Source of the DNA: a virus
Lineage: Duplodnaviria; Heunggongvirae; Uroviricota; Caudoviricetes
Strand: one strand, 5' to 3'
DNA: 64,000 bases
IMG/VR virus record: IMGVR_UViG_3300037391_000121
In this document: positions 4,521-53,399 of the stretch, in pieces
Layout of the letters: the number at the start of each line of letters is the position of its first letter
Numbering within the stretch: position 1 is the stretch's first letter
Made by a program: the position numbers and the translations under genes
Notes under the pieces: model-generated
Told to the model about the DNA's origin: nothing
Database searches by the model: none
What the model saw: only the letters and a program-made list of their open reading frames with translations

Positions 4521-4813
4521 TAGTGTTCGATGCACTTTCTCATGATGCCCGCCGTGATCTGAGAGAGCGCGATCACGATAAAGCCCTGCACGATGTGGTC
4601 GATGAAACTTCCACCGAGGGTCTTGTAGTACGCCAGCACGAGCATCGCCGTTACCCAATGACTTACGCACCATGAGCATGACAATAACTGGTCTAAAAAT
4701 GGGAATTTCGGTGCCAACCAGTCGTGGGGTTTAGCAAAAATCTTCCCCTCGGCTACGACCAAACTGATCGCTCCGCAGGCAACGCCTAGTTCAGCCAAAA
4801 ACGTGAGATTCAT
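4520..4813 (-). CDS. small multi-pass membrane protein, 97 aa
   Basis: Two or three hydrophobic helices. Its stop overlaps the glycosyltransferase start by 1 nt. Confidence 0.45.
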   Translation of the reverse strand: MNLTFLAELGVACGAISLVVAEGKIFAKPHDWLAPKFPFLDQLLSCSWCVSHWVTAMLVLAYYKTLGGSFIDHIVQGFIVIALSQITAGIMRKCIEH

Positions 4814-4880: not shown

Positions 4881-7148
4881 TTAGCCGCAGATCGAAGTCT
4901 GTTCTGACCAACGAATCTGTCCAACGGCCTTGGCGCAACCCTTGAAGCTCTTGCCCGCGAGGGTGTAGGTCTTGCCGTTCAAGCAGTCCAAGAGACCGTC
5001 GAAGCTGCGTGGGAAGGCTGCCGCGTAACCAGACCAGACCACCGTGCCGCCAGTGACAGCCGATGCCGTGGTGTCCACGTTGACGTTGCCCGGGCCAGCC
5101 GCGAATGCAGCGCCCGTGAGCGCACCGCCTTCGATAAGCTGGAAGAGAACCGTCGAACCGTCCGTGAAGACCTGAATCTCGCGGAGCAACTGTACGATGG
5201 TTCCGATGCCGTTGCCCTGAATCGACCAGAGCGGAACGAACGCAGTCGTCATGACCTGAGTATCGAACGCTGCACCGCTGTCGTAGCTGTAGTATTGGAT
5301 CGAGCAAGCAAACTGCTCGTCCGCAGGGATGGTGATGAGTGCGCCAGACGGGGCAAGCTGGAGCACCTGCATTGAGCCGAGCGAGAAAGTCTCGGGTCCG
5401 CAAGTGACCGTTGCAATATCGACGCTCAGACCGTTGGTTACATAAACGTCCAGAGCCGCCGTTGCTGGGCTGCCGCTGATCGTGAAGCCAACTGGGGTGC
5501 CCGCGATATCCGTGAGGTTGATGTTGAACGGCGTCGAGCAATCGCCGGGGCAGACATAGATCGGTGTCGAAGGAGTGTTCGTGACCGTTACGGTGCCAGT
5601 GACGCTCACCGTACCCGTGACACTTACCGTGCCGCCCGTCACATCGACGTAGACTGGTGACGAGAAGTCGTTGGTGATGAAGGTGTTGAGCGATTCAACC
5701 GCTGGGCTACCAGAGGTCGTGAAGCTCAACCCGCATACGCTGAGGCAGGTGTTAGTAACGTCAACGTAGATCGGCGTGGTTGGCGTGTTCGAAGTGAGAG
5801 TGACATCGCCGCCCGTAACGAAAACGTTGAGCGAGGATTCCGCAGGGCTTCCAGCAGATGTGAAGGTCGCGCCCGTGATGCCGACAGTCCAAGTTCCAGA
5901 CTGAGTGACGGCTACGGTGCCACTGACCGATACTGTCCAAGCGCCCGACTGTACGGACTCAACTGTCCATGTACCGCACTGCGTGGCGCATACTGTGCCG
6001 CCCGTGCTGTAGACATTGAGCGAAGATACCGCTGGGCTGCCAGCCTCAGTGAAGGATGCTCCGCAAACGTTGAGGCAGGTGTTGGTTACATCGACGTAAA
6101 TCGGAGTCGTCGGTGTGTTCGAAGTGAGGGTAACGTCGCCGCCAGTGACGAAGACATTGAGTGATGCCTCGGCGGGGCTACCAGAGATTGTCGTTCCGAT
6201 TGGAACGCCGCCAACTTCCGTGAGGTTAACAACCCACGGTGATGTGCACTGCGTTACGCAAATTTCGCCGCCAGTGACGAAGGTGTTGAGACCGCACACC
6301 TGAACAGAGGCGCAATCTGGAGTGGTGACGATTTCAGCAGTCGAGATAGTGACCGCGCCATTGTTGGCGAGTGCGCGACCAGTAAGAGTTCCGCCGCCGA
6401 GGGTGACGCTTGCGACAGCGAGGATGGTGCCGACTGTGGTAGCTCCCGGCCCGATGGATGTCCAAGAGCTTCCAGCGACCCAGACGACGTTGCACGCCTG
6501 CGCTCCGTTAGCCAGAAGGATCGTACCAGCGATCTGCTGGGTGATGGTGCTGCCAGCCAAGAACACGAATACCGCATCAGGGTTGCCCTGTGCATCAAGA
6601 GTGATCGGCGTGTCGATTTCGAGACTTGAGCCGCTCGAATAAACGCCCGGGTAGTAAGTGCCGACTGGAGCACCAACGGACATCTGTGTGCCCATGTCCG
6701 CCGTGGTGAGAACTTGTCCCGGTCCAAGACCTTGGTAATAAGTGATTGCCGCTGCGACTGCCGTCTGATCCGCTGCCGTGGCAGTGACTTCAGCCGCAGG
6801 CGGAACGATTACACCGGGAGGGAATCCAGTGATTGAATTTGTTGGGTACGAACCGACGTTACCGCCCGAGATGACCGAGGAACCAGAGTTCGTTACGCCA
6901 CTGTAGCCGAGGAGGGCGTAGGTTGCTGCTGAACCAAGCTGAGCGAGAGTCGGAGAGACTCCACCCGTGCAGGTTGTTCCGACGCCACTGATAGTGACTT
7001 CGGGGATGTTGATGACGCCGACGTTGATCGAGGCAACAGCAGGGCTACCCGAAACTGTTATGAGGGAACAACCCGTAGTATCATCGTAGATACCAAAAAC
7101 GGAGATGCCCGTGTATTGTCCACCCGCACAAGAATTGCAATCTGGCAT
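4881..7148 (-). CDS. large structural protein (tail-fibre/tail-associated), 755 aa
   Basis: Long ORF. Two near-identical ~45-aa repeats (SGSPAEASLNVFVTGGDVTLTSNTPTTPIYVDVTNTCL..), several GSPAxxSLNVxVT motifs, one ICVTQCTSPWVV motif. Confidence 0.6.
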   Translation of the reverse strand: MPDCNSCAGGQYTGISVFGIYDDTTGCSLITVSGSPAVASINVGVINIPEVTISGVGTTCTGGVSPTLAQLGSAATYALLGYSGVTNSGSSVISGGNVGSYPTNSITGFPPGVIVPPAAEVTATAADQTAVAAAITYYQGLGPGQVLTTADMGTQMSVGAPVGTYYPGVYSSGSSLEIDTPITLDAQGNPDAVFVFLAGSTITQQIAGTILLANGAQACNVVWVAGSSWTSIGPGATTVGTILAVASVTLGGGTLTGRALANNGAVTISTAEIVTTPDCASVQVCGLNTFVTGGEICVTQCTSPWVVNLTEVGGVPIGTTISGSPAEASLNVFVTGGDVTLTSNTPTTPIYVDVTNTCLNVCGASFTEAGSPAVSSLNVYSTGGTVCATQCGTWTVESVQSGAWTVSVSGTVAVTQSGTWTVGITGATFTSAGSPAESSLNVFVTGGDVTLTSNTPTTPIYVDVTNTCLSVCGLSFTTSGSPAVESLNTFITNDFSSPVYVDVTGGTVSVTGTVSVTGTVTVTNTPSTPIYVCPGDCSTPFNINLTDIAGTPVGFTISGSPATAALDVYVTNGLSVDIATVTCGPETFSLGSMQVLQLAPSGALITIPADEQFACSIQYYSYDSGAAFDTQVMTTAFVPLWSIQGNGIGTIVQLLREIQVFTDGSTVLFQLIEGGALTGAAFAAGPGNVNVDTTASAVTGGTVVWSGYAAAFPRSFDGLLDCLNGKTYTLAGKSFKGCAKAVGQIRWSEQTSICG
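5700..6230 (-). repeat. intragenic direct repeat pair (~130 nt units, roughly 80% identical by eye) inside the 755-aa gene
   Basis: DNA near 5700-5830 resembles DNA near 6060-6190; protein repeats at about residues 310 and 410. Confidence 0.5.
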
Positions 7149-14286: not shown

Positions 14287-14564
14287 TCAATGAGCTTCTC
14301 GCACTTACGGAGAGGCCCTACGATGAGTACAACACGGTTCTGACCGAAGTCATGACCCGCCTGCCGCTCGACGTGCAGGTGCAGACGTTCCAGCAGGTCT
14401 TAGGGGAAGAGCTTCCCCTGACCACCGCCCGCCGCGCCTATCGCACCGCCATTCGGATAGCAATGGGGCAGGAAGATGTCCACCGTGAGTACCAGCCACA
14501 CGGCCTGCCAAGAAAAATAATTTCAAAAAACAGTTGCCAAAATCGTAAAACTTCCGTATTGTAA
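14262..14564 (+). CDS. hypothetical protein
   Basis: Internal Met (MPAKQ) preceded by AAAGGGG; alternative start at 14244. Confidence 0.35.
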   Translation: MPAKQIPLVNELLALTERPYDEYNTVLTEVMTRLPLDVQVQTFQQVLGEELPLTTARRAYRTAIRIAMGQEDVHREYQPHGLPRKIISKNSCQNRKTSVL

Positions 14565-14621
14565 CTACAGAGAAGCTTTACGGTCGCCCGCAAGGGCTCC
14601 AAAACAATTTCAGAACCTCAC

Positions 14622-14707
14622 GATGGTGTTAGGTTGACGGTTACTTCATTCAACTGAATTCGCCAATGGCGAACTGGGGCTTGCCCCTCTCTGTCTCCGC
14701 TTGTTCC
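14622..14707 (+). ncRNA. degenerate Y-RNA-like element (copy 0)
   Basis: GATGGTGTTAGGTTGACGGTTACTTCA ... TCCGCTTGTTCC resembles the conserved 5' and 3' arms of the better copies. Internal hairpins TTCGCC-AATG-GCGAA and GGGGC-TTG-CCCC. Confidence 0.35.
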
Positions 14708-14710
14708 TCG

Positions 14711-14880
14711 TGGGTTCAATTTGCAAAAGGAGTTGCCCGGGATCATACTGCCGCCTTCGGGCGGGTGTCCCTGATACGTGCAATATTCCTTTCGACGGGT
14801 GGGAAACGTGCCCCGCAGACTGCCAGCCTCGGCTGGGTGTACCTGCGAGGTCCACCCACCGTCGTCCGATTTTAATGTGC
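14711..14880 (+). ncRNA. structured non-coding region (possible additional small RNA or processing signals)
   Basis: Hairpins CCGCC-TTCG-GGCGG, long-range stem CGACGGGTGG...CCACCGTCG, T-loop-like GTGGGTTCAATT, ends GATTTTA just before the next RNA. Confidence 0.3.
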
Positions 14881-14881
14881 T

Positions 14882-15004
14882 GTGGTGTTAGGAAACGGAT
14901 ACTTCTCCTGAAAAGAGGGGGACGTGGGTTCGAGTCCCACTGCCCGTCGCGAGACGGGTATAGCTCAGTGGCAGAGCACCAACCGTGCCGTTCCGCTTGT
15001 TCCC
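14882..15004 (+). ncRNA. YrlA-like Y RNA with circularly permuted tRNA-like module (copy 1)
   Basis: 5' arm GTGGTGTTAGGAAACGGATACTTCT; T-arm GTGGG-TTCGAGT-CCCAC (14924-14940); 8-bp hairpin CCCGTC-GCGA-GACGGG; D-arm TAGCTCAGTGGCAGAGCA; 3' arm CCGTTCCGCTTGTTCCC. Directly upstream of rsr. Confidence 0.6.
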
Positions 15005-15156
15005 AGCACAGTTTTCGCGAAGGTGCCCTTGAGAGGGGCTTAAAGAAGCGTGAGCCGCTTCGCCATCGGGGTAAGGCCGCTACCAAGGGAGGTAGCGGGG
15101 CAACGTGGGCACGCACTCCCACCCTTATCATTGATATTTTGAAGGAGGATACCAGC

Positions 15157-16671
15157 ATGGCATCCGTGAACGCAGTAACTCGACGTATTGGTCCGCAGGT
15201 GCACACCGCACCCGGAGCCACGGCAGCACGCATCAACAAGGCGCTTCAGCTTCAGCGTCTCTTGAACGCTTGCATGTTGTGGGAAGACAATTTCTACATC
15301 GACGGCGAGACCGTCGCTGGCTTGATCCAGAAGCTCGTCCACGAGACTTCCGCAGAGAAGTGTGCGGAACTCGCGGTCAAGGCTCGTAATGAGCAGAAGC
15401 TTCGCCACGCACCGTTGCTCGTAGTGCGTGAGATGGCTCGTGCGTCCGCCGACCACAAGGCACTCGTGGCGGATACGCTGTTCGCCGTCATTCAGCGTCC
15501 TGATGAGATCGCGGAGTTTCTCGCGATTTACTGGAAGGACGGGAAGCAGCCGATCTCCGCTCAGGTGAAGAAGGGCCTCGCTCGCGTGTACAACAAGTTC
15601 TCCGAGTACCAGCTTGCGAAGTGGAACAAGGACAAGGACATCAAGCTGCGTGACGTGGCTTTCTTGACGCACGCAAAGCCGAAGGACAAGGCTCAGGGTC
15701 TTCTGTTGGCGCAATTGGTCAACAAGGATCGCGTGCCCGTGGCAACCCGTGGCGGAAAGTACGACAAGAAGAAGGCCGCTGGGTTCCCGGTCGCGAAGAC
15801 CTACAAGACGCTGGCGAAGAATTTCGTCGGTCTGGCAACGCCCGACACTTGGGAGGTTGCACTCTCTGGTGGGGCAGGCAAGAAGGAGACGTTCACCCGT
15901 ATGCTCGAAGAGGGCACGCTGGGTGCAATCGCCGTCCTGAAGAACCTCCGCAACATGACTCAGGCGGGCGTGTCGAACAGCGTCATCAAGAGCGGTTTGG
16001 CAACCATGAAGACTGAGCGTGTGCTCCCGTTCCGTTTCATCACGGCGGCGAAATATGCCCCGGGATTTGAGTCGGAACTTGAGCAGGCGATGTTCCGTTG
16101 CCTCGCGGGTGCCCCGAAGTTGCTGGGTCGCACTGGTGTTGTGATCGACGTTTCTGGGTCCATGAACGGCAAAGTCTCGGGTAAGTCTGAGCTTGGCCGT
16201 ATCGATGCTGCGGCCTGCATCGCAATGTTGCTTCGTGAGGTTTGCGAGGACGTTGTGATCTACTGCACGGCAGGTAACGACGGCACCCGTATCCACAAGA
16301 CGGAGATGATCCCGTCTCGTCGTGGGTTTGCGTTGCGTGATCTCATCAACCAGTCCGCAGGTCGTTTGGGCGGCGGCGGTATCTTCTTGACGCAGATGAT
16401 GGACTACGTTCGCAAGCATGAGCAGGGCGACTTCGAGCGTATGATCGTCATCACGGATGAGCAGGACTGTGAGCGTGATCCCGCTCGTGCGGCATCGCGT
16501 GCAAACACCTTTGGTGAGCACAACTACCTCATAAACATTGCCAATGAGAAGAACGGAATTGGCTACCGCAAGTGGCATCACATTGATGGATTCAGCGAAG
16601 CCGTCGTCACCTACATCTTCGCGGAAGAGGGCCAGTCCTTCGATTCCGCCGATGAAGACTCACTTAACTAA
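15157..16671 (+). CDS. rsr: Ro60-like protein (Rsr): TROVE domain plus vWA domain
   Basis: ATG after GAAGGAGGA. vWA MIDAS motif VIDVSGSMNG. Size (504 aa) and N-terminal region consistent with a TROVE domain. The tracked ORF start at 14701 is an over-extension across the ncRNA cluster. Confidence 0.75.
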   Translation: MASVNAVTRRIGPQVHTAPGATAARINKALQLQRLLNACMLWEDNFYIDGETVAGLIQKLVHETSAEKCAELAVKARNEQKLRHAPLLVVREMARASADHKALVADTLFAVIQRPDEIAEFLAIYWKDGKQPISAQVKKGLARVYNKFSEYQLAKWNKDKDIKLRDVAFLTHAKPKDKAQGLLLAQLVNKDRVPVATRGGKYDKKKAAGFPVAKTYKTLAKNFVGLATPDTWEVALSGGAGKKETFTRMLEEGTLGAIAVLKNLRNMTQAGVSNSVIKSGLATMKTERVLPFRFITAAKYAPGFESELEQAMFRCLAGAPKLLGRTGVVIDVSGSMNGKVSGKSELGRIDAAACIAMLLREVCEDVVIYCTAGNDGTRIHKTEMIPSRRGFALRDLINQSAGRLGGGGIFLTQMMDYVRKHEQGDFERMIVITDEQDCERDPARAASRANTFGEHNYLINIANEKNGIGYRKWHHIDGFSEAVVTYIFAEEGQSFDSADEDSLN

Positions 16672-16707
16672 TCAGTTCTGGGTTCGTTAACAAACAGATT
16701 AGGTAAC

Positions 16708-16736
16708 TTCCGAACCCCTGAATAGGGGGTTCGGAA
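16708..16736 (+). promoter_or_regulatory. perfect 11-bp stem-loop abutting the HNH start codon
   Basis: TTCCGAACCCC-TGAATA-GGGGGTTCGGAA ends 1 nt before the ATG at 16737. No T-run after it. Confidence 0.5.
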
Positions 16737-17300
16737 ATGATTGGTGAAAGGTTCGGTAGGTACGTCGTTCTCGAAAGAATAGAAGACCACATTACGACTG
16801 GGGGACAGAAATTTTCCCAGTGGAATTGTCGTTGTGACTGTGGCATAGTCAAGCCTGTCCTTGGGGCAAAGCTGAGGAGCGGAAACACAAAAAGTTGTGG
16901 TTGTTTGCGGTTAGAGCGATTGGCGGCGAACAGAAAGATTCTTCCCTCGGGTCAATCTCTACGAAATTCCGTCCACCACACCTACGAACTTCGTGCGGCA
17001 AAAAACCATCTCGTGTGGGAGTTGACAGACGACAAGTTCGACGAGTTGACGCGGGGAGATTGCTACTACTGCGGCTGTCCGCCCGCTAATATGGCGAGTC
17101 GCTCGTTCTTACATGGGGACTTCGTGTACAATGGGATTGACCGAAAAGACAATCTCAAGGGGTACACAACGGATAACACCGTATCTTGTTGCGGCATTTG
17201 CAATAAGATGAAGCGCGATTTGTCGGTTGAAGAATTTCTGAGTCGTGTGAGTTGTATAGCGAAAAGGCACAGCGAATATGGCAAAAGCGAGGCATTATAG
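16737..17300 (+). CDS. HNH homing endonuclease
   Basis: GRYVVLERIED..QWNCRCDCG..SCGC N-terminal zinc region and DRKDNLKGYTTDNTVSCCGICNKMK HNH motif. Confidence 0.7.
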   Translation: MIGERFGRYVVLERIEDHITTGGQKFSQWNCRCDCGIVKPVLGAKLRSGNTKSCGCLRLERLAANRKILPSGQSLRNSVHHTYELRAAKNHLVWELTDDKFDELTRGDCYYCGCPPANMASRSFLHGDFVYNGIDRKDNLKGYTTDNTVSCCGICNKMKRDLSVEEFLSRVSCIAKRHSEYGKSEAL

Positions 17301-18300
17301 GAACGGACGCAGCAGGAATCGTCCAAACCGAGGACGCTGGATTAGCAACCAGACGCTCTACGCAAAGCCGTGGACGCCGTGGGACCCGACCGCTAATTTT
17401 GATCCAGCACGAGTTGAATTCGGTTTCAAAGAGTTCTGGCCGGACGCCGCGTCCAAGTACAAGCCATTCTTTAGGCACATCAAGGTGTTTGAAGACGCGA
17501 TGAATCGCCTCGTTAACAAAGGGCGATCAGACGTGGATACGTACCCGCATGGCTGGAGGGTTATCCACACTCTGGTCGAAACGGTATTCGTGGGCATGAC
17601 ATCTGTTGTTACCCTTGTCGGAAATGGACAAGGGCCTGATGCTTTCAAAGTCGCTCGTAGTGCTTTGGAGAACGCGATCAACGCTGAGTATCTTCGTCTT
17701 TACCCAGATGAGGTAGACAATTACCTCGAATGGAAGTTCGTGGAAGACCACAAGAAGCTTGAATCCATTCGGCAGTATCGCCCAGCGTCGTTGGCGGGCT
17801 TCACGAAGGATCAGTTAGACAAGGTTGACAACGAATACGACCGCGTGAAGGATAGGTTCCGCAACACCTCCACGTCCAAATGCGAAAGCTGCGGGCACGA
17901 GCGCAATCGTGTAAATAAGTGGAATTGCTGGACTGTCAAGAACTTAGCGGAACGCGCAGAATTGACCGCGACCGATTCGTTGTATCGAGCATCGATGAGA
18001 CTCATGAACGAAGTGATGCATGGCTCAATCAGTGGCATCATGCAATACTTCGGCTCTGAGGACCCAGATCGCATCGCCGTACCTCCGCATGACAGCGAGT
18101 GTGCTACAATGGCATTGGTCGCAGCGCATGAAAGCCTGCTCCGCGCTATTAGGACGCTTACGCAGGTGTACAATGAGGACTCGACCCCTCCGTATGATGA
18201 TCTCCTAAAGGAGTTCGTCTCCGTGTGGGAAAAGATTCTCGGTATAAAAGCCGAACCGCTTCCAGCGGTAATGGCGGCAAAAGCTCTAGGAGGAGTTTAA
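17278..18300 (+). CDS. hypothetical protein, 340 aa (basic N-terminus)
   Basis: Long ORF overlapping the HNH stop by 23 nt. Confidence 0.45.
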   Translation: MAKARHYRNGRSRNRPNRGRWISNQTLYAKPWTPWDPTANFDPARVEFGFKEFWPDAASKYKPFFRHIKVFEDAMNRLVNKGRSDVDTYPHGWRVIHTLVETVFVGMTSVVTLVGNGQGPDAFKVARSALENAINAEYLRLYPDEVDNYLEWKFVEDHKKLESIRQYRPASLAGFTKDQLDKVDNEYDRVKDRFRNTSTSKCESCGHERNRVNKWNCWTVKNLAERAELTATDSLYRASMRLMNEVMHGSISGIMQYFGSEDPDRIAVPPHDSECATMALVAAHESLLRAIRTLTQVYNEDSTPPYDDLLKEFVSVWEKILGIKAEPLPAVMAAKALGGV

Positions 18301-18301
18301 C

Positions 18302-18562
18302 ATGGGAACCGAAACGCAGTATTACGTCATCGATGCAACTTTGATACCCGAGAAGGACCCTTTCACGGGCCTGTCCGTCAGCATCGGGGCGACCACCAAG
18401 CAACTTGTGGGGCACCAAGGATTGGCGGACGAGCAGGTTTCCGCTGTTGAGTTATTGACTCCCGGCGTGGAGGACGGAAACTACACGTTGATCTACTCGT
18501 TGCTGGGGAAGAACCATTCGTCTGATGTCCGTGTCTATTTGGGGAACTTCTTGACGCGGTAA
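18302..18562 (+). CDS. hypothetical protein, 86 aa
   Basis: ORF 2 nt after the previous stop. Confidence 0.4.
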   Translation: MGTETQYYVIDATLIPEKDPFTGLSVSIGATTKQLVGHQGLADEQVSAVELLTPGVEDGNYTLIYSLLGKNHSSDVRVYLGNFLTR

Positions 18563-18699
18563 CTAAACTTAAGGTCGGGCGCTCCCACGAGCACGCACCC
18601 GATGTACGAAGCCGAAGCAGCGTGGAACGGAGTGATAACGCTTCGATTAAGCTTGCAAGACAGGTATGTCAGTATAAAATATCGGTGGAGGAAACTGGG

Positions 18700-18748
18700 C
18701 GGTCCACCGAGTACCCCTTGCATTTTCCCGCAAACGTGGTATTATTTC
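18700..18748 (+). promoter_or_regulatory. promoter-family copy (CCTTGCATTTTCCCGCAAACGTGGTATTAT) placed for a leaderless transcript
   Basis: Extended -10 TGGTATTAT ends about 7 nt before the ATG at 18752. Upstream hairpin TCGGTGGA-13nt-TCCACCGA preceded by TATAAAAT. Confidence 0.4.
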
Positions 18749-18751
18749 TTT

Positions 18752-18934
18752 ATGCCATTCAAAGCCATAAAACGTAAGATCAAAAAAGACGGGAAAGTCA
18801 CTACAATCAAAATTTTCAGGGACGGTGCGGATGGCACAGGTGTAAGGCTGCCGTTTAGCTGTGGGTTCTGTAACGAGGTTCACTTTCGGTCCCGCCAGCA
18901 GCGCACCGACCATACGCAGCATTGTCCCAAGTAA
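18752..18934 (+). CDS. small zinc-finger-like protein, 60 aa
   Basis: MPFKAIKRK..CGFCNEVHF..HTQHC. Start at the internal Met because the upstream part of ORF 18602 carries the promoter element. Confidence 0.4.
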   Translation: MPFKAIKRKIKKDGKVTTIKIFRDGADGTGVRLPFSCGFCNEVHFRSRQQRTDHTQHCPK

Positions 18935-18948
18935 GCTTGTGTGGGTGG

Positions 18949-19020
18949 TGATTGGAAACGGGTACTTCTTCCTTTAACGAAAGATGCCGAAAGGCTACCC
19001 CGTCCCGCTTGTTCCCCCAC
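18949..19020 (+). ncRNA. YrlB-like short Y RNA without a tRNA-like module (copy 3)
   Basis: GTGGTGATTGGAAACGGGTACTTCT ... hairpin CCTTT..AAAGG ... CCGTCCCGCTTGTTCCC. Confidence 0.5.
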
Positions 19021-19037
19021 CATGTTTCGCCGAGTGG

Positions 19038-19161
19038 TGTTAGGAAACGGGTACTTCTCTCGCCTTGGGAGAGTAGCTCAGCGGTAGAGCGCCTGACTTG
19101 AAATCAGGAGGCCGTTGGTTCGACTCCAACCTCAACTACTCCGTCCCGCTTGTTCCCTCGG
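19038..19161 (+). ncRNA. YrlA-like Y RNA with colinear tRNA-like module (copy 2)
   Basis: 5' arm GTGGTGTTAGGAAACGGGTACTTCT; hairpin CTCTC-GCCTTGG-GAGAG; D-arm TAGCTCAGCGGTAGAGCG; anticodon-like arm CCTGA-CTTGAAA-TCAGG; T-arm GTTGG-TTCGACT-CCAAC; 3' arm CCGTCCCGCTTGTTCCC. The acceptor stem does not pair and there is no CCA. Confidence 0.6.
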
Positions 19162-19180
19162 CATATTTTCTGGAGCTTCA

Positions 19181-19429
19181 ATGAAGCCATTGGGTATCGA
19201 CGCCGCTATCGACCAGATCGAAACCGCCCTATTTGATCTCAGTGAACCCGGTTGCACGGACACCGAATATAGCGATGAGATTGTCATCAACTCCATCGGT
19301 CGCATCCGCCTGAGAGCGATCCTCAAACGCCTCCGTGTGGGCTACATGCGTGGGGTGGGAATCAATTCCCTGTGCCCGCACGACCTTGCAGTGCAGGCGA
19401 AGCTGAAGAAGCTTAAGAAAAAGCGATGA
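19181..19429 (+). CDS. hypothetical protein, 82 aa
   Basis: ATG after TGGAGCTTCA; the tracked start at 19115 would overlap the ncRNA. Confidence 0.45.
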   Translation: MKPLGIDAAIDQIETALFDLSEPGCTDTEYSDEIVINSIGRIRLRAILKRLRVGYMRGVGINSLCPHDLAVQAKLKKLKKKR

Positions 19430-24808: not shown

Positions 24809-24968
24809 AATGATTATCGCCGACATGGAAGCTGACTTGGAGTACGGCGAAAGCTTCCCCAACAGCATGAGCAGTCGTGGCGAGGAAGCCATGGAAGACG
24901 GGAAAGTCCAGCTTTTGAGAAAGTATCTGCCCAAGTTGCGGGCGTTAAGGGATCAGAATGGCGAATAA
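24792..24968 (+). CDS. hypothetical acidic protein
   Basis: Internal Met (MATTLEM) overlapping the upstream stop. Confidence 0.35.
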   Translation: MATTLEMIIADMEADLEYGESFPNSMSSRGEEAMEDGKVQLLRKYLPKLRALRDQNGE

Positions 24969-26067
24969 GGGATTCACGGAGACTCGATACGATTACTCGG
25001 CAGGGCGTGACCACGCTCCTGAGCTAACCGTGTGCGTCGGTATCAGTGGTTCTGGGAAGAGCACCGAGGTCATGCAGCGGGTGAAGCGGTCGCAGGGTAA
25101 GACCGTCCGTCTGAACCGTGACAAGATGCGTGAGATGCTGTTCTGCGGTGCGGATTGGAACAAGCACAACGAGAATTTCGTCCGCACTTGGCAGATGGAG
25201 GGGGCTCGTATTGCACTCCAGTCGGGCAAGAACGTGGTCATCGACGACACGAACTGCATCCGCAACACGCGGCAGAAGTGGGAAGAGTTTGCGGTCGAGC
25301 AGAAGGTTAAGCTGTGCTTCTTGGTTATGGACGTTCCGTTGAAGGAGTGTGTTGAGCGGGACATTGCACGCGGAGTTCCGTGCCCGACCTGTGGGACGCC
25401 AAAGGGCGTCATGGTTGGCGAGGAGATCATCCGCCGCCAGTACAAGGATTTGACGAGTTTCAATATGAGCAACCGAGACATGACGCCTACGTCGCCGACG
25501 CGAGCTTGGATGGAGCGTCAGGCCCTCTTGAAGGGCGGGTTCGTGCCTCGTCTTGTGGGGCGTCCGTGGGTGTTGTTTGACATGGACGGCACCGTAGCAG
25601 ATCACCGTGGGCAGCGGAACCCTTACGAGGAGCACAAGGTCACGCTGGACAACTGCTACGAGGTCGTTGCGGAGTGGATTCGGCAGTTGGCTCCGTCGCA
25701 CAACCTTTGCGCGGTTTCAGGCCGTCATGATTTTTGTGGGGATTTGACGTGTGAGTGGTTGGAGGGATACAACGTTCCCTTCGATCATATCCTGATGCGC
25801 TACAACGGGGACAACCGCCCCGACGTGGTGGTCAAGCAGGAAATCCTCAACGAGTTGATCGCCGTCATCGGGAAGGAGAACATCGCATTCGTTCTCGATG
25901 ACCGCCCTCAGGTAGTGAAAATGTGGAGGGCGAATGGGATCAAGGTTTACCCGGTACGCGGTGAGCCGATCCACAGGGCGGGGTGCTCGAACGGCTACGC
26001 GAAGCCGAAGGAAGGCGTGTACATCGGCGGTTTCTGCGGTGAGTGTGGTGCGTTGGAGAACTTCTAG
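24958..26067 (+). CDS. polynucleotide 5'-kinase/3'-phosphatase (T4 Pnkp-like)
   Basis: N-terminal P-loop GISGSGKST. C-terminal HAD motif VLFDMDGTV (DxDGT). Domain order kinase then phosphatase, as in T4 PseT. Confidence 0.7.
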   Translation: MANKGFTETRYDYSAGRDHAPELTVCVGISGSGKSTEVMQRVKRSQGKTVRLNRDKMREMLFCGADWNKHNENFVRTWQMEGARIALQSGKNVVIDDTNCIRNTRQKWEEFAVEQKVKLCFLVMDVPLKECVERDIARGVPCPTCGTPKGVMVGEEIIRRQYKDLTSFNMSNRDMTPTSPTRAWMERQALLKGGFVPRLVGRPWVLFDMDGTVADHRGQRNPYEEHKVTLDNCYEVVAEWIRQLAPSHNLCAVSGRHDFCGDLTCEWLEGYNVPFDHILMRYNGDNRPDVVVKQEILNELIAVIGKENIAFVLDDRPQVVKMWRANGIKVYPVRGEPIHRAGCSNGYAKPKEGVYIGGFCGECGALENF

Positions 26068-26187
26068 TGAGACGACCAGTGCCGGGGTATGTCGAACGGG
26101 CTTGCTTTCGGATGAGGGACAACAGAGACCTTATCCAATGGCTGACCGAGGCGTACCCCGACACGATGCGTTGGATTTCGTACACGA

Positions 26188-26412
26188 TTGACACGACCTT
26201 GGAGAACATGCGGAGCAGGGAAATTCAGAAGGCGCAGGAGGCCGACCGTGGACAAGCAACTCGTAGCTGATCTCAGGAAAGAGTATACGGAATTGGTCGA
26301 AGTGCTCGAAGGCGATGGCTTCTGCATTCGTCGCGAGTGCATGTGCGATCATGCGAAGCCCGTGGTGAAGATGAACGATCTCATCACGAAGTTGGAGCAG
26401 GAGGCAAACTGA
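26188..26412 (+). CDS. hypothetical protein
   Basis: ORF; the true start may be the internal GTG. Confidence 0.3.
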   Translation: MTRPWRTCGAGKFRRRRRPTVDKQLVADLRKEYTELVEVLEGDGFCIRRECMCDHAKPVVKMNDLITKLEQEAN

Positions 26413-26804
26413 TGGGGTACATGATCCTCAAGCTGAATGATGGTAAGCGAGATTTCTACCTCGAATGGTCAACGCACACTGATGCCCCGCGAACCTTCGG
26501 CATGACGCTAAATGAATTCACCGCGTTCTACCGTGACGAGTATGGTCGCAGTAGCATGTTGGAGTTTCAGGAGCGGATGGAACGGGTCGAAGCGAAAGGG
26601 ACCTCCGACTACTGCGAGGAGTCCGTGGATGAAACCATCGCCCGCAATCACGCAGGCAAGGATGGCACCTGCCTGACGAAGGAACAGATCATCAAGGTTT
26701 ACTGCCACGAACGTCAGAAGCCCGTAACGGAAGAGGGTGTTGATCCGTGGGCTGAGGAAAAGGCCGCAGAAGCGGCAATGGAAGCACGCAGAGGAGTAAT
26801 CTGA
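26412..26804 (+). CDS. hypothetical protein
   Basis: Internal Met (MGYMILKL) of ORF 26337, right after the upstream stop. Confidence 0.4.
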   Translation: MGYMILKLNDGKRDFYLEWSTHTDAPRTFGMTLNEFTAFYRDEYGRSSMLEFQERMERVEAKGTSDYCEESVDETIARNHAGKDGTCLTKEQIIKVYCHERQKPVTEEGVDPWAEEKAAEAAMEARRGVI

Positions 26805-27109
26805 TGTTGTGTTGGGGCGGTAATTCCAAGGAAACGTCGATCACTGTCGCGATGCAGCCGAACCTGTTTCAGCGAGGCGACAAGATTCGGGTGAGCGGAT
26901 TTGTGAACAGTAACAACGGTTTGTTCGTAGTCAGGCGTGCGAAGGGCACGAGCTACATCGTACAGCCTGCCGACTGGTGGGATTACGTGACGCACTACGC
27001 CTCGAAGTTCTGGAACGAAGTGCAGTGGAAGTTCTGGGGCGTGGTCAACAATTTGGAGGATTTGTGGAACCGACTGTTGGAGAGCCTAAAGCGCGTAAGA
27101 AGCAGATGA
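26804..27109 (+). CDS. hypothetical protein, 101 aa
   Basis: ORF with overlapping start. Confidence 0.4.
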   Translation: MLCWGGNSKETSITVAMQPNLFQRGDKIRVSGFVNSNNGLFVVRRAKGTSYIVQPADWWDYVTHYASKFWNEVQWKFWGVVNNLEDLWNRLLESLKRVRSR

Positions 27110-27255
27110 CACGGCACGATTGGTACATCGTGCTCACCCTGCTCATGTTTGCGAACGCGGCATTGTTCGACGGTAAACGCGGCTGGGGCATGGGCCTGAC
27201 GCTCGTCGCGATCTTGATTGTGGTTCTGGTGGACGGTTTCGGTGTTAAATTATGA
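27106..27255 (+). CDS. small membrane protein
   Basis: MTRHDWYIVLTLLMF...; internal Met of ORF 26977. Confidence 0.35.
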   Translation: MTRHDWYIVLTLLMFANAALFDGKRGWGMGLTLVAILIVVLVDGFGVKL

Positions 27256-28391
27256 CGGTTTTCCTCAAGGACGTTTTGCCTGTCGATTTGCTGAACAAGC
27301 ATATCGAGGACGGCGTAATCCGTAAGCAGGTCCACCCCGACTATCCCGACCAGCTTTACATCTTGAACTATTCCGAGCAGGCTCAGTTCGGTCGCATCTG
27401 GGATGCGGCAACCAACGTGTGCCGTGGATTGGTCTGCGCCATTACGCCTGACGGCGACGTTGTGATTGCACGCGGATTCAACAAGTTCCACAATTACAAC
27501 ACGGAGTACCTGCCCGAGACGATGGACGCAAACTTGCCGCCCGTCACACCGCTGGCGACCCAGAAGTTGGATGGGTCGATGGGGCTCCCGTACTATTGGG
27601 ACGGCAAGTGGTGGGTTGCAACTCGCGGCTCGTTCGCTTCGGATCAGGCAAAATGGGCGACCGAGTGGCTCCGTCACAACTATCCGCTCTTCCACTCGGG
27701 TTCGTTCTCCACGCCCGTGTGCGAGGTAATCTACAAGGAGAACCGCATCGTCGTTGATTACGACTTTGAGGGACTCGTGTTGCTTGGCTTCGTGGACTTG
27801 GCGACTGGTTACGAACTCGGTCGGCTGTTCTGCGAGGATTGGGCATTCGCAAAGCAGTTCCCTATCGTCAAGAAGTTCGATAAGACGTTGGCGGAATGTG
27901 CTGCCGAGAACAACTTGAACGAAGAGGGCTACGTCTTGACTTACGACAAGGGGCGTGATGTAGCGCCCTTGAAGATCAAGGTGAAGTTCGCGGACTATGT
28001 GCGCTTGCACCGCATCTTGACTGGCTTGAATCCCAAGGCGATCTGGGAGATGTTGGAGGCCGGACAGAACGAGGCAATCGACACCATCATCGCCGACCCG
28101 ACGATGCCTGCGCCGTTCATCGCGTGGTTTTCGGGATGGGTGGAGCAGTTCCGTGCTCGGCATCGGGAGATGGAGCGGAAGGCACTGTACGTGTTCGACC
28201 GCCGCCCGAAGAACGATCTCGGCGATTTGGGTCCTGCCCTGCACCGCAAGTCGGTCGCTTTGTACTTCCAGAAGACGCCCGAGTTGTGCTCGATCCTGTT
28301 CGCGTTGCTGGACGGCAAGAACCATGCGTCCATCATTTGGGATCGCCTCAAGCCCAAGGCGACGGACACTTTCAAGAAGGACGGGGAGTGA
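27252..28391 (+). CDS. RNA ligase (T4 Rnl1-like, ATP-dependent)
   Basis: Nucleotidyltransferase motif I QKLDGSMG (KxDG lysine) at about residue 104. ATGA overlap upstream. Confidence 0.65.
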   Translation: MTVFLKDVLPVDLLNKHIEDGVIRKQVHPDYPDQLYILNYSEQAQFGRIWDAATNVCRGLVCAITPDGDVVIARGFNKFHNYNTEYLPETMDANLPPVTPLATQKLDGSMGLPYYWDGKWWVATRGSFASDQAKWATEWLRHNYPLFHSGSFSTPVCEVIYKENRIVVDYDFEGLVLLGFVDLATGYELGRLFCEDWAFAKQFPIVKKFDKTLAECAAENNLNEEGYVLTYDKGRDVAPLKIKVKFADYVRLHRILTGLNPKAIWEMLEAGQNEAIDTIIADPTMPAPFIAWFSGWVEQFRARHREMERKALYVFDRRPKNDLGDLGPALHRKSVALYFQKTPELCSILFALLDGKNHASIIWDRLKPKATDTFKKDGE

Positions 28392-28845
28392 GTGCTTCAC
28401 CCTGCTCAGCACGCTTTATCCAGTTGTGATTTGCACAGAGCAGTTGGTAGTTCTTACCCCCGTCCGCTAGAACTTTTTTCAAGTAGGTTTCTTGTGCCAG
28501 ACCTCTTAACTCTTTACAACCGCCTCCGAATTTATGGTCAATCTGGAGAGCCCTCGGGTCTGTCCATCCGCAACCCGGCCAAGCACATTGATTCCCCAGC
28601 ATTGCGAACACGGCTTCCTTACGCCGCGCTCGTGTCTGTCTGCTGTAGCCGTTATATCGTTCTCGATTGTTTTTCTTGGTTGCGGCTGTTACGGCAATGC
28701 ATTTTTCACGGTGGTTTTTGTAATGCTCGGCGCTTTTCTGCCGCTGTATTTGTAAACAGGTTTCACAGCAGGTTTTTCCGCCTGCTGTTGGATTCGGGCA
28801 ACGTGCACATTTCATGAAATAACCCCCTCTATAATAGGGGTTCAT
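28372..28845 (-). mobile_element. free-standing HNH homing endonuclease, opposite strand, inserted between the RNA ligase and CCA genes
   Basis: CAWPGCGW..LQIDH..LLCANHNW HNH motif plus N-terminal Cys cluster. The only minus-strand gene in the plus block. Overlaps the ligase 3' end by 20 nt. Confidence 0.65.
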
Positions 28846-28886
28846 AGCATAAAGATTTGTAAGTAGTTACAAAATAAGGGGTTATT

Positions 28887-28924
28887 CCTAAAGTTTTCGG
28901 GCGTTTCCTTGGTATAATAGGGGT
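28887..28924 (+). promoter_or_regulatory. conserved promoter element, copy 3
   Basis: CCTAAAGTTTTCGGGCGTTTCCTTGGTATAATAGGGGT then ATG at 28927. Confidence 0.55.
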
Positions 28925-28926
28925 AT

Positions 28927-29184
28927 ATGAGACGAAGCTTTCTGGATTCGATGCTGTCATTCGTGGGTCGGTGTACCCACGACCGTTATTCATTTCCCCA
29001 GACGATCAAGGCAGGCAAGGACAAGGGCAAGACCACGGTCTCCTGCTTGGACTGCGGCAAGACGCTGCCGTATGATTGGGCGGGGTTGGGCGCGGAGGAA
29101 GAAATCAAACCCCCCAAGATGACGGCACCGAGGGTTATCGTGATCGAGAAGACGGGAACGTATCTCATAGGAGAACAAAAGTGA
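28927..29184 (+). CDS. small zinc-finger protein, 85 aa
   Basis: CTHDRY..CLDCGKTLPYDW. Confidence 0.45.
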   Translation: MRRSFLDSMLSFVGRCTHDRYSFPQTIKAGKDKGKTTVSCLDCGKTLPYDWAGLGAEEEIKPPKMTAPRVIVIEKTGTYLIGEQK

Positions 29185-30500
29185 ACAGATTCGCCGCAAC
29201 CACAGTCATCCGAGAATTGCAGAGGAACGGCTTTGAAGCTTTCCTCGTAGGCGGCTGCGTGCGCGACATGATCCTCGGCAATGAGCCGAAGGATTTCGAC
29301 GTGACCACGAATGCTCTCCCTGAACAGGTGCAGGCGATCTTCGCCAAGACCTTGCCAGTCGGCGTCAGCTTCGGTGTGGTTATCGTTGTGGTGGATGTTG
29401 ACGGCAAGGGCGAGCAGATCGAAGTCGCTACCTACCGCAAGGACGGCGTGTACTCCGATGGTCGGCGTCCCGACACGGTTGAGTACGGCAAGACTGCACG
29501 GGAAGACGTGGAACGTCGCGACTTCACCATGAACGGCCTGCTCCTGACGACGCCGATGGATTTCCCCGTCAAAGGTGTCACCGCCGCAGACCACGACATG
29601 TTCGACGGCTACGGCATTGTTGACTTTGTTGGTGGACGGGAAGACATCAAGGCTCGGCTTATCCGCTGCATCGGTGACCCCAACAAGCGGTTCACGGAAG
29701 ATGCCCTGCGGATGATGAGGGCCGTGCGCTTCGCCGCGAAACTCGGCTTCGACATCGAGCCCGAGACGTTGAAGGCGATCACCGTCAATGCACCGAAGAT
29801 GGTGAACATCAGCCGCGAGCGAGTGGCGATGGAACTGTTCAAGTTGCTGACGGCTCCATTCCCTCTTAAGGGGCTCGTGCCCCTGTTCGCCTCGGGGTTG
29901 GCGGCACACGTGTTCCCGAAGGAATTTATGGACAACGTGCTGCTTGGCCGCACGCTGCGGCGATTCACGGAATTTCCTACGTCGAATCCAACATTGGCGA
30001 TGGCAATGTTTCTCAGCGATACGTCGAATCCTAAGACGCCGATGACGATGGCCTTGAGTTTGAAGCTGAGCAACGACGAGAAAACACAGATCGTGACGGC
30101 GCTGCTGTATGTCAGTGCGATCCCGAAGGCGCGGGAGTACGCCAGCACGCCCGCTCATTTTATTCGGACGATGCGAGTTCCGGGAATCGAATTGGGTCTG
30201 GAGATTGCCATCCAGAACGAAATGCTCGGCATAACCAACGTCGGCAATGAGGCTCTGATGTCGATTGTTAACGACTACCGGGGTCTGACGCCTGAGGAAA
30301 TTTACCCGAAGCCGTTGGTGACGGGGGACGATTTGATCGCCGCTGGCTACACGCCGAGCAAGGTGTTCCGCGACGTTCTGTACGTCATCGAAACGGAACA
30401 GTTGGACGGCAAGCTGACCACTCACGAGCAGGCCCTACAGCGTGCGATTGTGCTCATGACTGGCATCTGTACCGAACGTGTTGCTGAGGGCGGTGCGTGA
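29181..30500 (+). CDS. cca: tRNA nucleotidyltransferase (CCA-adding enzyme / poly(A) polymerase family)
   Basis: Head-domain motif FLVGGCVRDMILGNEPKDFDVTT (GGxVRD...DxD). GTG start after AGGAGAA with a GTGA overlap; in frame with ORF 29076. Confidence 0.7.
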   Translation: MNRFAATTVIRELQRNGFEAFLVGGCVRDMILGNEPKDFDVTTNALPEQVQAIFAKTLPVGVSFGVVIVVVDVDGKGEQIEVATYRKDGVYSDGRRPDTVEYGKTAREDVERRDFTMNGLLLTTPMDFPVKGVTAADHDMFDGYGIVDFVGGREDIKARLIRCIGDPNKRFTEDALRMMRAVRFAAKLGFDIEPETLKAITVNAPKMVNISRERVAMELFKLLTAPFPLKGLVPLFASGLAAHVFPKEFMDNVLLGRTLRRFTEFPTSNPTLAMAMFLSDTSNPKTPMTMALSLKLSNDEKTQIVTALLYVSAIPKAREYASTPAHFIRTMRVPGIELGLEIAIQNEMLGITNVGNEALMSIVNDYRGLTPEEIYPKPLVTGDDLIAAGYTPSKVFRDVLYVIETEQLDGKLTTHEQALQRAIVLMTGICTERVAEGGA

Positions 30501-52862: not shown

Positions 52863-53399
52863 ATGACCACTACGTTTCTCGTGGACTACACCCTCGCCCG
52901 TGTCAATCATTACCGCTGCGATCAGCCCGCTGGCAAGTGGGGTACTTCAACCTACGTCTGGGTTCCCAAGACCATGACCACCGAGGAATTTGAGGCACTG
53001 TGCGAGAAGGCTCGTAAGACGTACCTCGATGCGGCGGATGCGGCTAAGAAGCTGGTTGGAACTCCCGCGCCGGGTTACGGCCCGCGATATGACGCCTACC
53101 CCGACAAGACGGTCGCCGAGGTTAAGGCGATCCATGCGGCTGAAACCGAAGAGTGGAACAAGCGCAGCGTTGCGGTCAAAGCCGAGCAGCGTACCTTCGC
53201 ACAACTCTTGAAGGATGTCAGCGACGGTGTGGTAAAAGGCTTTTGGGACATTGAATTCCCAATCGACGTGGAAGTTCATTGGGGGCATCACCATGGCACC
53301 GACATTGCCTACGGCGAGACCAAGATTACCAACCCCGCGCCTGCAACGATGACGTTCGGCGGACAAACCGAGGCCGACATGAACGTGGATGACTTATGA
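52863..53399 (+). CDS. hypothetical protein, 178 aa
   Basis: ORF after AGGGTAAGGAG. Confidence 0.45.
   Translation: MTTTFLVDYTLARVNHYRCDQPAGKWGTSTYVWVPKTMTTEEFEALCEKARKTYLDAADAAKKLVGTPAPGYGPRYDAYPDKTVAEVKAIHAAETEEWNKRSVAVKAEQRTFAQLLKDVSDGVVKGFWDIEFPIDVEVHWGHHHGTDIAYGETKITNPAPATMTFGGQTEADMNVDDL

Follow-up and report, generated by a model that had tools for sequence, protein, structure and literature searches.

An Rsr/Ro60 gene of a probable phage accompanied by four Y RNA-like modules, one of which encloses a complete tRNA

The locus described here lies in a 64,000-nucleotide (nt) stretch of DNA (the window) from a tailed virus, IMG/VR record IMGVR_UViG_3300037391_000121, and is centered on rsr, a gene for a homolog of the TROVE-ring protein Rsr/Ro60. 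On both sides of rsr, and on its strand, are four copies of an RNA module (M0 to M3, in their order along the window; Table 1) that we regard as a probable family of Y RNAs. The predicted Rsr protein scored above the cut-off of the Pfam TROVE family (PF05731; 37.5 bits vs. 23) and below that of vWA_Ro60 (PF25045; 17.4 bits vs. 27.7), its residues D331, S333 and S335 (DxSxS), T433 and D434 are invariant in nine homologs, and it matched PHROG 850, annotated as “RNA-binding protein”, with an E of 2e-38. Its best matches in the PDB were the Ro60 structures of phage phiLo (9KOP/9L5Y; E 4e-16, 62 bits, residues 18–487), and from these similarities the open reading frame (ORF) can be identified as an Rsr/Ro60 homolog. 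A first-pass annotation of the window, made from the letters, had proposed a phage-borne rsr with TROVE and DVSGSM features that sits between three to four Y RNA-like genes, a proposal now supported by the Rsr homology, by a covariance model search and by covariation in the module helices.

The bipartite frame that the modules share emerged, in four + strand copies, from a reading of positions 14400–19400 and a direct-repeat search, which placed its 5′ arm, GTGGTG(T/A)T(A/T)GGAAACGG(A/G)TACTTCT, at 14882, 18945 and 19034 and its 3′ arm, CCGT(T/C)CCGCTTGTTCC, at 14988, 19000 and 19141. The arms of M0, at about 14622 and 14696, are more diverged, the 3′ arm there reading TCCGCTTGTTCC. The first-pass positions for M1 (14882/14988) and M0 (~14622/14695) were right, but those for the other two copies (18949/19004 and 19038/19145) were each 4 nt too high, and M0, although correctly recognized as a fourth copy, is not the degenerate one it was taken for, since it fully matches the covariance model, R1. 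The model was built on an alignment (A3) of 11 short modules that share one geometry and come from other loci, with zero window sequence. It runs from a terminal helix (5 bp) through an unpaired U, the GG/CC clamp and a 5′ loop of 4 nt to a second helix (9 bp), then UACUUC and an apical region, and has a 3′ loop of 7 nt. Against both strands of the window it returned exactly four matches, all full-length and on the + strand, with E values from 5.8e-7 to 4.6e-5. As no window sequence had entered the model and the next-best match had an E of 0.88, the four-copy frame is far beyond chance. That fifth match (11.8 bits, 53150–53208, − strand) lies inside an ORF, without the GG clamp and UACUUC, and was judged to be probably due to chance; its ends are AGAGU/ACUCU, and GCGAAG and CGCUUGUUCC are present in it.

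M0 and M1 are 150–540 nt upstream of rsr and M2 and M3 are 2.3–2.5 kb downstream, all on the + strand, i.e., all four lie where Chen et al. (2014; PMC4201824) required a YrlA RNA to be, within 4 kb of a Ro60 ortholog and on the same strand. The seed sequences of R1 were chosen with a descriptor script that served for nothing else: a loose version (GG[CT]G ... T[TC]CC plus two helices) gave about 100 matches per strand in the window and was too unspecific, and a stricter one gave 450 matches on the rsr strand, 41 on the opposite strand and 33 in shuffled sequence, and mis-parsed the window’s own modules. An earlier MAFFT alignment (A2) of 13 short modules had its 3′ strands out of register and was replaced by A3. 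No convincing further module came out of folding the M0–M1 and M1–rsr spacers. Two “tRNA-Phe” calls by ARAGORN in the window were rejected because neither place has an Rfam tRNA match at the gathering score: the call at 14875–14948 is an artefact of the 5′ arm and T arm of M1, and that at 4450–4545 (96 nt) lies within a glycosyltransferase ORF, on the opposite strand.

From the outside inward, the frame consists of a terminal helix of 5–7 bp whose sequence is free, one unpaired U, the GG/CC clamp and a conserved asymmetric internal loop, in which 5′ YGWW(G) faces 3′ GCUUGUU (with the neighboring positions, 5′ GGYGWWG / 3′ GCUUGUUCC); inside the loop is a second covarying helix, followed by (Y)UAC-UUC, which opens a small V-arm hairpin. 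That the two arms would pair as a bulged helix had been predicted from the letters, and each copy indeed has a self-complementary terminal helix of its own: CACGA/UCGUG, UGCUG/CAGCA, GUGGG/CCCAC and CCGAG/CUCGG. These distinct but complementary helices amount to covariation among paralogs within a single genome. The same holds between genomes, as the first-pass annotation had asked of related loci: over about 290 homologous modules both helices covary strongly, in the viral and the genome sets alike. Standard pairs fill 93.4% of the cells of the viral alignment vs. 59.3% in shuffles, and 94.4% vs. 73.0% in the genome alignment, percentages that are inflated because the alignments were fitted to R1. 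The covariation score of the viral alignment was 0.869 vs. 0.216 for shuffled alignments, none of 500 shuffles reached it, controls with slid strands gave 0.06–0.14, and double-sided changes were found in 16/16 pairs; the genome alignment scored 0.644 vs. 0.234. Even with model-fitted alignments, the two helices are secure in view of the slid controls and the variety of pair types, and with compensatory changes at all 16 positions the frame has the feature general to Y RNAs, a stem of the 5′ and 3′ ends with a conserved bulged helix or internal loop.

The unpaired positions are strongly conserved, with the consensus U-GG-(C/U)G(A/U)AG ... G(U)UACUUC ... CG(C/U)UUGUUCC, which is as expected of a protein-binding site. 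For YrlA and YrlB, GNCGAAN0-1G near the 5′ end, followed by YUAY, has been proposed as the site bound by Rsr (PMC4201824). The 5′ motif of the relatives, GUGGCG(A/U)AG, corresponds to GNCGAAN0-1G and the (Y)UAC after it to YUAY; likewise, the clade consensus, UGG(C/U)G(A/U)AG, covers GGCGAAG, which fits the published motif, and its UUAC fits YUAY. The 5′ arms of the window, with GGUGUUAGG in M0, M1 and M3 and GGUGAUUGG in M2, align column by column with that consensus, and this comparison of motifs supports the frame being this clade’s version of the published Rsr-binding motif.

None of the GenBank phages was close to the window at the DNA level. Relatives of its Rsr protein were found on IMG/VR viral contigs (38–60% identity, 221 confirmed stretches) and on genome contigs, mostly metagenome-assembled genomes of Acidobacteriota/Terriglobia (46–53% identity, 535 stretches), and in almost every locus the flanks held tandem arrays of similar modules upstream of rsr. 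R1 gave 140 matches in 79 viral sources and 164 in 80 genome loci; all 304 are on the rsr strand, and most are within about 3 kb of rsr. With default filters there was one module in 53 loci, two in 44, three in 35, four in 6, five in 2 and seven in 1, counts that are lower bounds since R1 misses some modules, e.g., YrlA-type ones whose 3′ motif has drifted (such as ...CAAACCCC in the Brevundimonas phage Gurke) and, even with filters off, the M3 of the contig L305 described below. One locus (L192) has six modules in 550 nt. Arrays of two to seven modules are therefore the rule in this rsr clade, cultured phages included, and the array of the window, which had been thought unusual for a phage, is typical.

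Such arrays bear on the possibility that the modules, instead of being separate small RNAs, act in cis within the mRNAs of rsr and the downstream operon, as autoregulatory Rsr-binding sites or stabilizing structures of leaders and trailers. The modules are all on the coding strand and near ORFs, only two promoter-like sites were found, no module is followed by an intrinsic terminator, and in Mycobacterium smegmatis YrlA and YrlB, which also lie upstream of rsr, are made from one precursor (PMC4201824), all of which would suit such a role. As many as six modules in 550 nt are, however, hard to explain as one leader, and every module is bounded by a closed terminal helix whose sequence is free, as expected for RNAs that are excised and protected at their ends. 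In addition, the RNAs of the characterized homologous systems accumulate as discrete species bound by Rsr (PMC4201824, PMC12135203). We consider a purely cis-acting role improbable.

A metagenome contig, L305, provided a close comparison. It came from exact 16-mer scans of viral and metagenome contigs for GGAAACGGRTACTTCT, which otherwise produced almost solely chance matches. Over 1.24 kb, comprising the small ORF before M2, M2, M3 and the region downstream, L305 is 86% identical to the window, and within the M2–M3 stretch about 10 of 263 aligned columns differ, the tRNA of M3 having a single-nt difference, in its variable loop. The frames of M1 to M3 resemble one another within a genome more closely than orthologous positions do across genomes: in the window M3 shares the 5′ arm GUUAGG with M1, and in L305 it shares GAUUGG with the M2 of that genome. 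This suggests duplication, gene conversion or concerted evolution among the modules, and it explains why the repeats could be seen by eye. The locus is also not an assembly artefact, as it recurs in assemblies from separate samples (L336–L339: Joint Genome Institute 3300037143 and 3300038456, SRR8693972 and SRR11558294); up to 7.5 kb of the rsr locus are 100% identical in three independent assemblies and the fourth has a single-base difference in 4.2 kb, so that one phage genotype recurs across samples.

The homogenized look of the unusually similar M1–M3 frames, together with the HNH endonuclease genes between modules, could be taken to mean that the repeats are selfish or recombinational DNA—sequences like repetitive extragenic palindromes or miniature inverted-repeat transposable elements, tRNA gene remnants, or attachment sites—maintained by mobility or gene conversion. 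Such an origin is very hard to reconcile with compensatory changes at every helix position, with 304 of 304 R1 matches on the rsr strand, with an association with rsr that holds across distant taxa and phage families, or with the absence from the rest of the 64-kb window of any match better than E 0.88, and we give it next to no credence. Both it and the cis-regulatory explanation are unlikely accounts of four structured, covarying modules with a conserved docking loop, which, as sequence comparison establishes, keep strictly to the strand and the neighborhood of rsr in hundreds of loci.

Modules are also present in cultured phages, where they are either unannotated or called tRNAs. Gurke (L335) has about six upstream of rsr, at 1611–2445, and its annotated “tRNA-Ser” (2311–2385) overlaps a YrlA-type module (Rfam YrlA match at 2336–2434). 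The Caulobacter phage CcrColossus (L334) has at least three upstream of rsr, at 1263–1968, and its annotated “tRNA-Gln” (1673–1740) coincides with a weak frame match and overlaps a YrlA-like match at 1708–1804. In the Xylella phage Usme (L332) there are several, also upstream of rsr (1839–2436). The YrlA-type modules of the cultured relatives score 30–50 bits on Rfam YrlA, some of them over the full model, which is below its threshold, and automatic annotation will take the Y RNAs of such loci for tRNAs. In the Bacteroides phage crAss001 (L333; NC_049977.1), the modules are in an unannotated 900-nt gap downstream of the TROVE gene gp96. Two tRNA-like RNAs there (4124–4267 and 4379–4520) have an acceptor stem and a T arm, the first a D arm as well, and in place of an anticodon arm a closed Y-type stem with the frame motifs reversed (...UGUUCC, a closing hairpin, then UGGUGUAG..GUUACUUC); Rfam tRNA gave 46.6 bits with an 82-nt insertion. 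The arrangement is that of a circularly permuted YrlA whose RNA ends lie at the acceptor stem. A further observation in Gurke is a match to Rfam “tmRNA_permuted” at 5887–6232 (57.7 bits, above the gathering score of 47), about 2 kb downstream of rsr, which would be a phage-encoded two-piece transfer-messenger RNA near the Y RNA array. Free-standing tRNA genes are frequent neighbors, too: in 27 of 141 related loci (L011–L170, e.g., L060, L058, L018 and L054) rsr and its Y RNAs lie among at least three of them, the richest cluster having 19 tRNA calls in 7 kb, and the cluster tRNAs are almost all on the rsr strand.

Within the common frame, the four modules of the window differ in their apical domains. 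M0 carries three hairpins without a T-arm or D-arm motif (fold z-score −2.5), and its ortholog in the related locus L001 has compensatory changes in two apical hairpins and in the terminal helix (CACGA/UCGUG to CGCAG/CUGCG). M1 has, after the frame, a V-arm hairpin (UUCUCCU/AGGGGGA, its 5′ strand being the conserved CUUCUC), a T arm, an acceptor-like hairpin closed by a GCGA loop and a D arm, with the elements GUGGGUUCGAGUCCCAC, GCCCGUC-GCGA-GACGGGU and UAGCUCAGUGGCAGAGC; its fold z-score is −3.0 and its terminal helix extends to 14876–15010. Rfam YrlA (RF02553) matched M1 at 14917–14980 (29.4 bits, E 0.0022; model positions 24–84 of 114), and the alignment spans the T arm, the closed acceptor-like hairpin and the D arm. 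The search with covariance models that had been suggested for the locus was thus passed narrowly in the case of Rfam YrlA, this match being below the gathering score, and convincingly in the case of the clade-specific R1. Only M1 has the permuted YrlA order (YUAY, V arm, T arm, closed acceptor-like stem, D arm), and on that order it can be classed as a divergent YrlA with a circularly permuted tRNA-like domain. M2 has two mini-hairpins (CUUU-AACG-AAAG and GCC-GAAA-GGC), has orthologs in L001 (6745–6816) and L305 (3532–3611, one position different), and resembles the short, hairpin-type YrlB in its layout.

M3 is a different construction. The frame encloses a complete tRNA in normal order (19067–19138), with a UGA anticodon and a 5-nt variable loop, which scored 66.6 bits on Rfam tRNA (RF00005; gathering score 29) and was the sole match in the window to any Rfam family at gathering thresholds. 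The nucleotides for tertiary interactions are all present (U8, A14, G15/C48, G18G19, U54U55C56 and A58). Its acceptor stem is irregular, with G1.U72, G3.A70 and A4.A69, no CCA is encoded, and the tRNA thus has neither the intact 7-bp acceptor stem nor the anticodon-matched identity elements of a translational tRNA. Bacterial seryl-tRNA synthetase requires a long variable arm, so the 5-nt loop is a poor fit to the serine identity of a UGA anticodon. In addition, the GGGAGAG of its 5′ acceptor strand can pair without mismatch with the conserved CUCUC(U) of the frame, and minimum-free-energy folds of M3 and its L305 ortholog prefer this V-arm-like GGGAGAG:CUCUC hairpin over the acceptor stem. The prediction that two of the copies would enclose D and T arms held for M1 and M3, though in opposite orders, T then D in M1 and D then T in M3, and by its topology M3 is not a circular permutation of YrlA.

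Among 287 modules that were classed (171 short, 49 with a T arm only, 26 of YrlA order, 38 other long ones and 1 with a D arm only), M3 was the only one in true tRNA order, with D before T; a second candidate, in L168, was discarded as its D-arm match was false. Out of 361 ARAGORN tRNA calls on the rsr strand of these loci, only those in M3 and its L305 ortholog lie within a genuine frame, and no tRNA similar to that of M3 was found in the other fetched loci. The architecture of M3 therefore appears to be new, found among some 165 related loci only in the window and one close relative, and the likeliest origin of M3 is a recent one, in which an M2-like frame was duplicated and took in a tRNA.

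What M3 does is a matter for more tentative reading. One possibility, which we put forward with reserve, is that it represents a new class of Y RNA, in which a complete, L-shaped tRNA, its anticodon arm exposed, is joined at the acceptor end to a portable Rsr-docking stem, the whole being non-translational and presenting a tRNA body to the partners of Rsr. If so, candidate roles would be those of a decoy or sensor for host anticodon nucleases, or of a guide that brings in the phage’s Pnkp, Rnl1 or CCA-adding enzyme. The recent origin of M3 in a YrlA-type array would then show directly the repeated capture of tRNA genes into a pre-existing frame—to our knowledge a route that has been proposed for the independent origins of YrlA and Yrn1 and never observed—and the circularly permuted RNAs of crAss001 would add a third outcome to this modular process. 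It is also conceivable, if rather unlikely, that M3 is a functional phage tRNA gene whose leader and trailer happen to form, or were recruited to form, an Rsr-binding stem; cleavage by RNase P and processing of the 3′ end would then free the mature tRNA, the CCA-adding enzyme would complete it, and Rsr would only chaperone or regulate the precursor, M3 not being a stable Y RNA. In favor of a tRNA gene are the high Rfam score, the full set of tertiary nucleotides and a tRNA that is nearly invariant in L305 while the frame flanks changed at several positions. The phage also encodes a CCA-adding enzyme that M3, with no CCA of its own, would need, many related viral loci have rsr inside tRNA gene clusters, and the YrlA of M. 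smegmatis is cleaved by RNase P and gains CCA in vivo (PMC4201824). Against it, the adjacent mismatches G3.A70 and A4.A69 are retained along with G1.U72 in both the window and L305, the serine anticodon is paired with that 5-nt variable loop, the minimum-free-energy folds choose the perfect pairing of GGGAGAG with CUCUC(U), and the tRNA takes the place of the apical domain precisely, within an intact frame.

The nearest precedents are the YrlA and YrlB RNAs of Salmonella Typhimurium and M. smegmatis, with homologs in 254 bacteria and 22 phages (Chen et al. 2014, PMC4201824; RF02553). The modules of the window are like them in their position near rsr and on its strand, in there being more than one per locus, in the 5′/3′ stem with a probable GNCGAA-type motif and YUAY, in the permuted tRNA-like domain of M1 (V arm, T arm, closed acceptor stem, D arm) and in the YrlB-like form of M2. 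They differ in that they are four and lie on both sides of rsr, as opposed to two reported per species, and in the apical domains of M0 and M3, which are not described for YrlA or YrlB. The order of elements in M3 is that of Yrn1 of Deinococcus radiodurans, the RNA that tethers Rsr to polynucleotide phosphorylase (PNPase) and has a D-like arm, an anticodon-like arm and a T arm between the strands of its Rsr-binding stem (PMC4201824). Yrn1, however, has partial D-loop features and a 6-nt loop, whereas the tRNA inside M3 is complete and high-scoring, has an anticodon loop of 7 nt and could form an acceptor stem. As the Deinococcus Y RNA models in Rfam gave no match to the window up to an E of 10, the likeness is one of topology and not of membership, and the frame that M3 shares with its YrlA-type neighbors points to an origin within the YrlA-type lineage.

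The Ro60 of Thermus phage phiLo is the closest solved homolog of the window’s Rsr, and in both phages Y-like RNAs adjoin the gene; Yrl1 and Yrl2 of phiLo, upstream of its Ro60 gene, bind the phage Ro60 and host PNPase experimentally (PMC12135203). The protein relationship is distant (62 bits), and phiLo differs in having two RNAs, both upstream and recognized by a CGAA motif, with no tRNA-like domains reported in the available part of that paper. A parallel of another kind is the rsr-yrlBA-rtcBA RNA repair operon of Salmonella, in which Rsr and Y RNAs are linked to end-healing and sealing enzymes that answer tRNA damage (PMC7790460). The window shares the genetic linkage of Rsr and Y RNAs to RNA end-healing and sealing enzymes; here, by contrast, these are T4-type (Pnkp and Rnl1, with a CCA-adding enzyme), are 6–13 kb away, and come without RtcB, RtcA or RtcR among the ORFs scanned. 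Two Y RNAs per species or phage are what has been reported (PMC4201824, PMC12135203), and the literature searched, which did not extend to the supplementary tables of Chen et al. (2014) or to two reviews, contained no array larger than two.

Taken as a whole, the locus is in our view quite probably that of a phage Rsr/Ro60 with four same-strand Y RNAs, which share a docking stem, differ in adaptor tips and probably have a role in the surveillance or repair of tRNA or other structured RNA. From the comparisons above it can be classed as a real, divergent member of the Rsr–YrlA/YrlB system, with a typical array and one new module architecture. By analogy with D. radiodurans, S. Typhimurium, M. 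smegmatis and phiLo, Rsr would bind the conserved loop and helix of each RNA. The apical domains, again by analogy, may be interchangeable adaptors or gates that tether Rsr to host PNPase or to tRNA-recognizing enzymes, or that control access to the Rsr cavity. Together with Pnkp, Rnl1 and the CCA-adding enzyme, the system would, to judge from its genomic context, probably act during infection in the surveillance, degradation or repair of damaged tRNA and other structured RNA, e.g., when host anticodon nucleases have attacked.

Several observations weigh against this interpretation. At permissive thresholds Rfam YrlA found nothing in M0, M2 or M3, and its 29.4 bits for M1 are far from the gathering score of 69, as are the 29–50 bits of the modules in the window and related cultured phages, in which they differ from known YrlA RNAs. 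The 5′ motifs of the window, unlike those of YrlA and YrlB, depart from the strict GNCGAAN0-1G. The single-sequence fold z-scores of M2 (−0.7) and M3 (−0.3) are unremarkable, the pairing percentages are inflated as stated, and promoter-like sites in the region are not above chance in number. The connection of Pnkp, Rnl1 and the CCA-adding enzyme to the array is one of proximity, over 6–13 kb with genes between, and the ORFs scanned yielded no capsid or terminase gene.

The wider relevance lies in the clade. Some 165 relatives suggest that one Rsr gene is commonly accompanied by a toolbox of two to seven Y RNAs with a common docking stem and differing adaptor domains, and the clade includes experimentally tractable phages (crAss001, CcrColossus, Gurke and the Xanthomonas/Xylella Usme group). 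A clade-specific covariance model fills the gap left by the Rfam YrlA threshold. The M3 chimera would be a recent, datable case of a whole tRNA placed in a Y frame, and bears on the question of where the tRNA-like domains of Y RNAs came from, and the adjoining T4-type tRNA repair genes suggest a role in the contest between phage and host anticodon nucleases.

Table 1. Coordinates of the rsr locus and of neighboring features in the window.
Feature	Position	Strand	R1 match	Description
P1	14534–14562	+		promoter-like site TTGCCA-17-TATTGT; about 55 nt upstream of M0; weak
M0	14619–14712	+	28.8 bits, E 2.8e-5, full-length	frame with three small hairpins
M1	14878–15008	+	34.9 bits, E 7e-7	YrlA type
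rsr	15157–16671	+		504 aa; TROVE ring and putative vWA domain, DVSGSM metal ion-dependent adhesion site motif (VVIDVSGSM)
Hairpin	16709–16736	+		11-bp perfect hairpin, UUCCGAACCCC UGAAU GGGGGUUCGGAA; between rsr stop and adjoining HNH ATG
HNH ORF	16737–17300	+		HNH/endonuclease VII-like, 187 aa; PHROG 374 (HNH endonuclease) E 1e-16, PHROG 1035 (endonuclease VII) E 2.6e-15
DUF5677 protein	17278–18300	+		340 aa; Pfam DUF5677 E 1.3e-16
P2	18653–18680	+		promoter-like site TTGCAA-16-TAAAAT; upstream of small ORF, M2 and M3; weak
Small Cys-rich ORF	18764–18934	+		56 aa; directly upstream of M2
M2	18941–19020	+	35.2 bits, E 5.8e-7	short, YrlB-like
M3	19030–19161	+	28.0 bits, E 4.6e-5	frame around complete tRNA in canonical order
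Pnkp	24958–26067	+		T4-type polynucleotide kinase-phosphatase; HAD_PNKP E 5e-33, AAA_33 E 4e-21, PHROG 505 E 4e-73
Rnl1	27252–28391	+		T4 Rnl1-type RNA ligase; RNA_lig_T4_1 E 2e-14, PHROG 562 E 1e-50
CCA-adding enzyme	29076–30500	+		tRNA nucleotidyltransferase; PolyA_pol E 7e-31, PHROG 2244 E 8e-57

The other features of the region (Table 1) concern its transcription and its turnover. At the place syntenic to P1, L001 has TTGACA-17-TATTAC upstream of the orthologous module, and 91 nt just before P2 (18564–18654) are 96.7% identical in L305 though the surroundings differ. The hairpin after rsr has no U tract (fold z-score of 16672–16736, −3.4) and could be a terminator, a processing site or an insertion boundary. 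Behind it, an insert of about 1.9 kb (16737–18562) separates rsr from the downstream modules and contains the HNH ORF, the DUF5677 protein and an 86-aa ORF, so that the array is interrupted, as first described, by an HNH endonuclease and a 340-aa protein, which PHROG and DUF5677 matches confirm. The HNH ORF had no Pfam match and is missing from this position in L001. The same site is empty in L001 (6440–6542) and in L305 (98–3320) holds two HNH-like genes and two paralogous proteins of 306–310 aa; from this comparison the site between rsr and the small Cys-rich ORF appears to be a variable cargo island, and its differing contents suggest turnover driven by homing endonucleases. The small Cys-rich ORF itself (56–65 aa, LPF(S/V)CGFC ... 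H..CP) precedes M2 in the window, in L305 (3343–3525) and in L001 (6542–6739), is 94.6% identical in amino acids between the window and L305, had no family match, and is possibly co-transcribed with M2 and M3.

Further downstream are the T4-like repair genes that had been noted at the outset, now identified as Pnkp, Rnl1 and a tRNA nucleotidyltransferase (24958–30500), the last with matches to RNA-binding and tRNA_NucTran2_2 domains as well; RtcB, said from the start to be lacking, was not found among the window ORFs scanned. The PHROG matches of the window include topoisomerase, ThyX, SNF2 and HNH, and together with the T4-like genes and the IMG/VR relatives they make it likely that the window is part of a phage. 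Among its leftward genes, at 4881–7148 (− strand) and beside a family 2 glycosyltransferase, is one for a 755-aa protein with an ice-binding-like domain (PF11999, E 4e-35), which may be a tail-fiber or adhesin-type protein.

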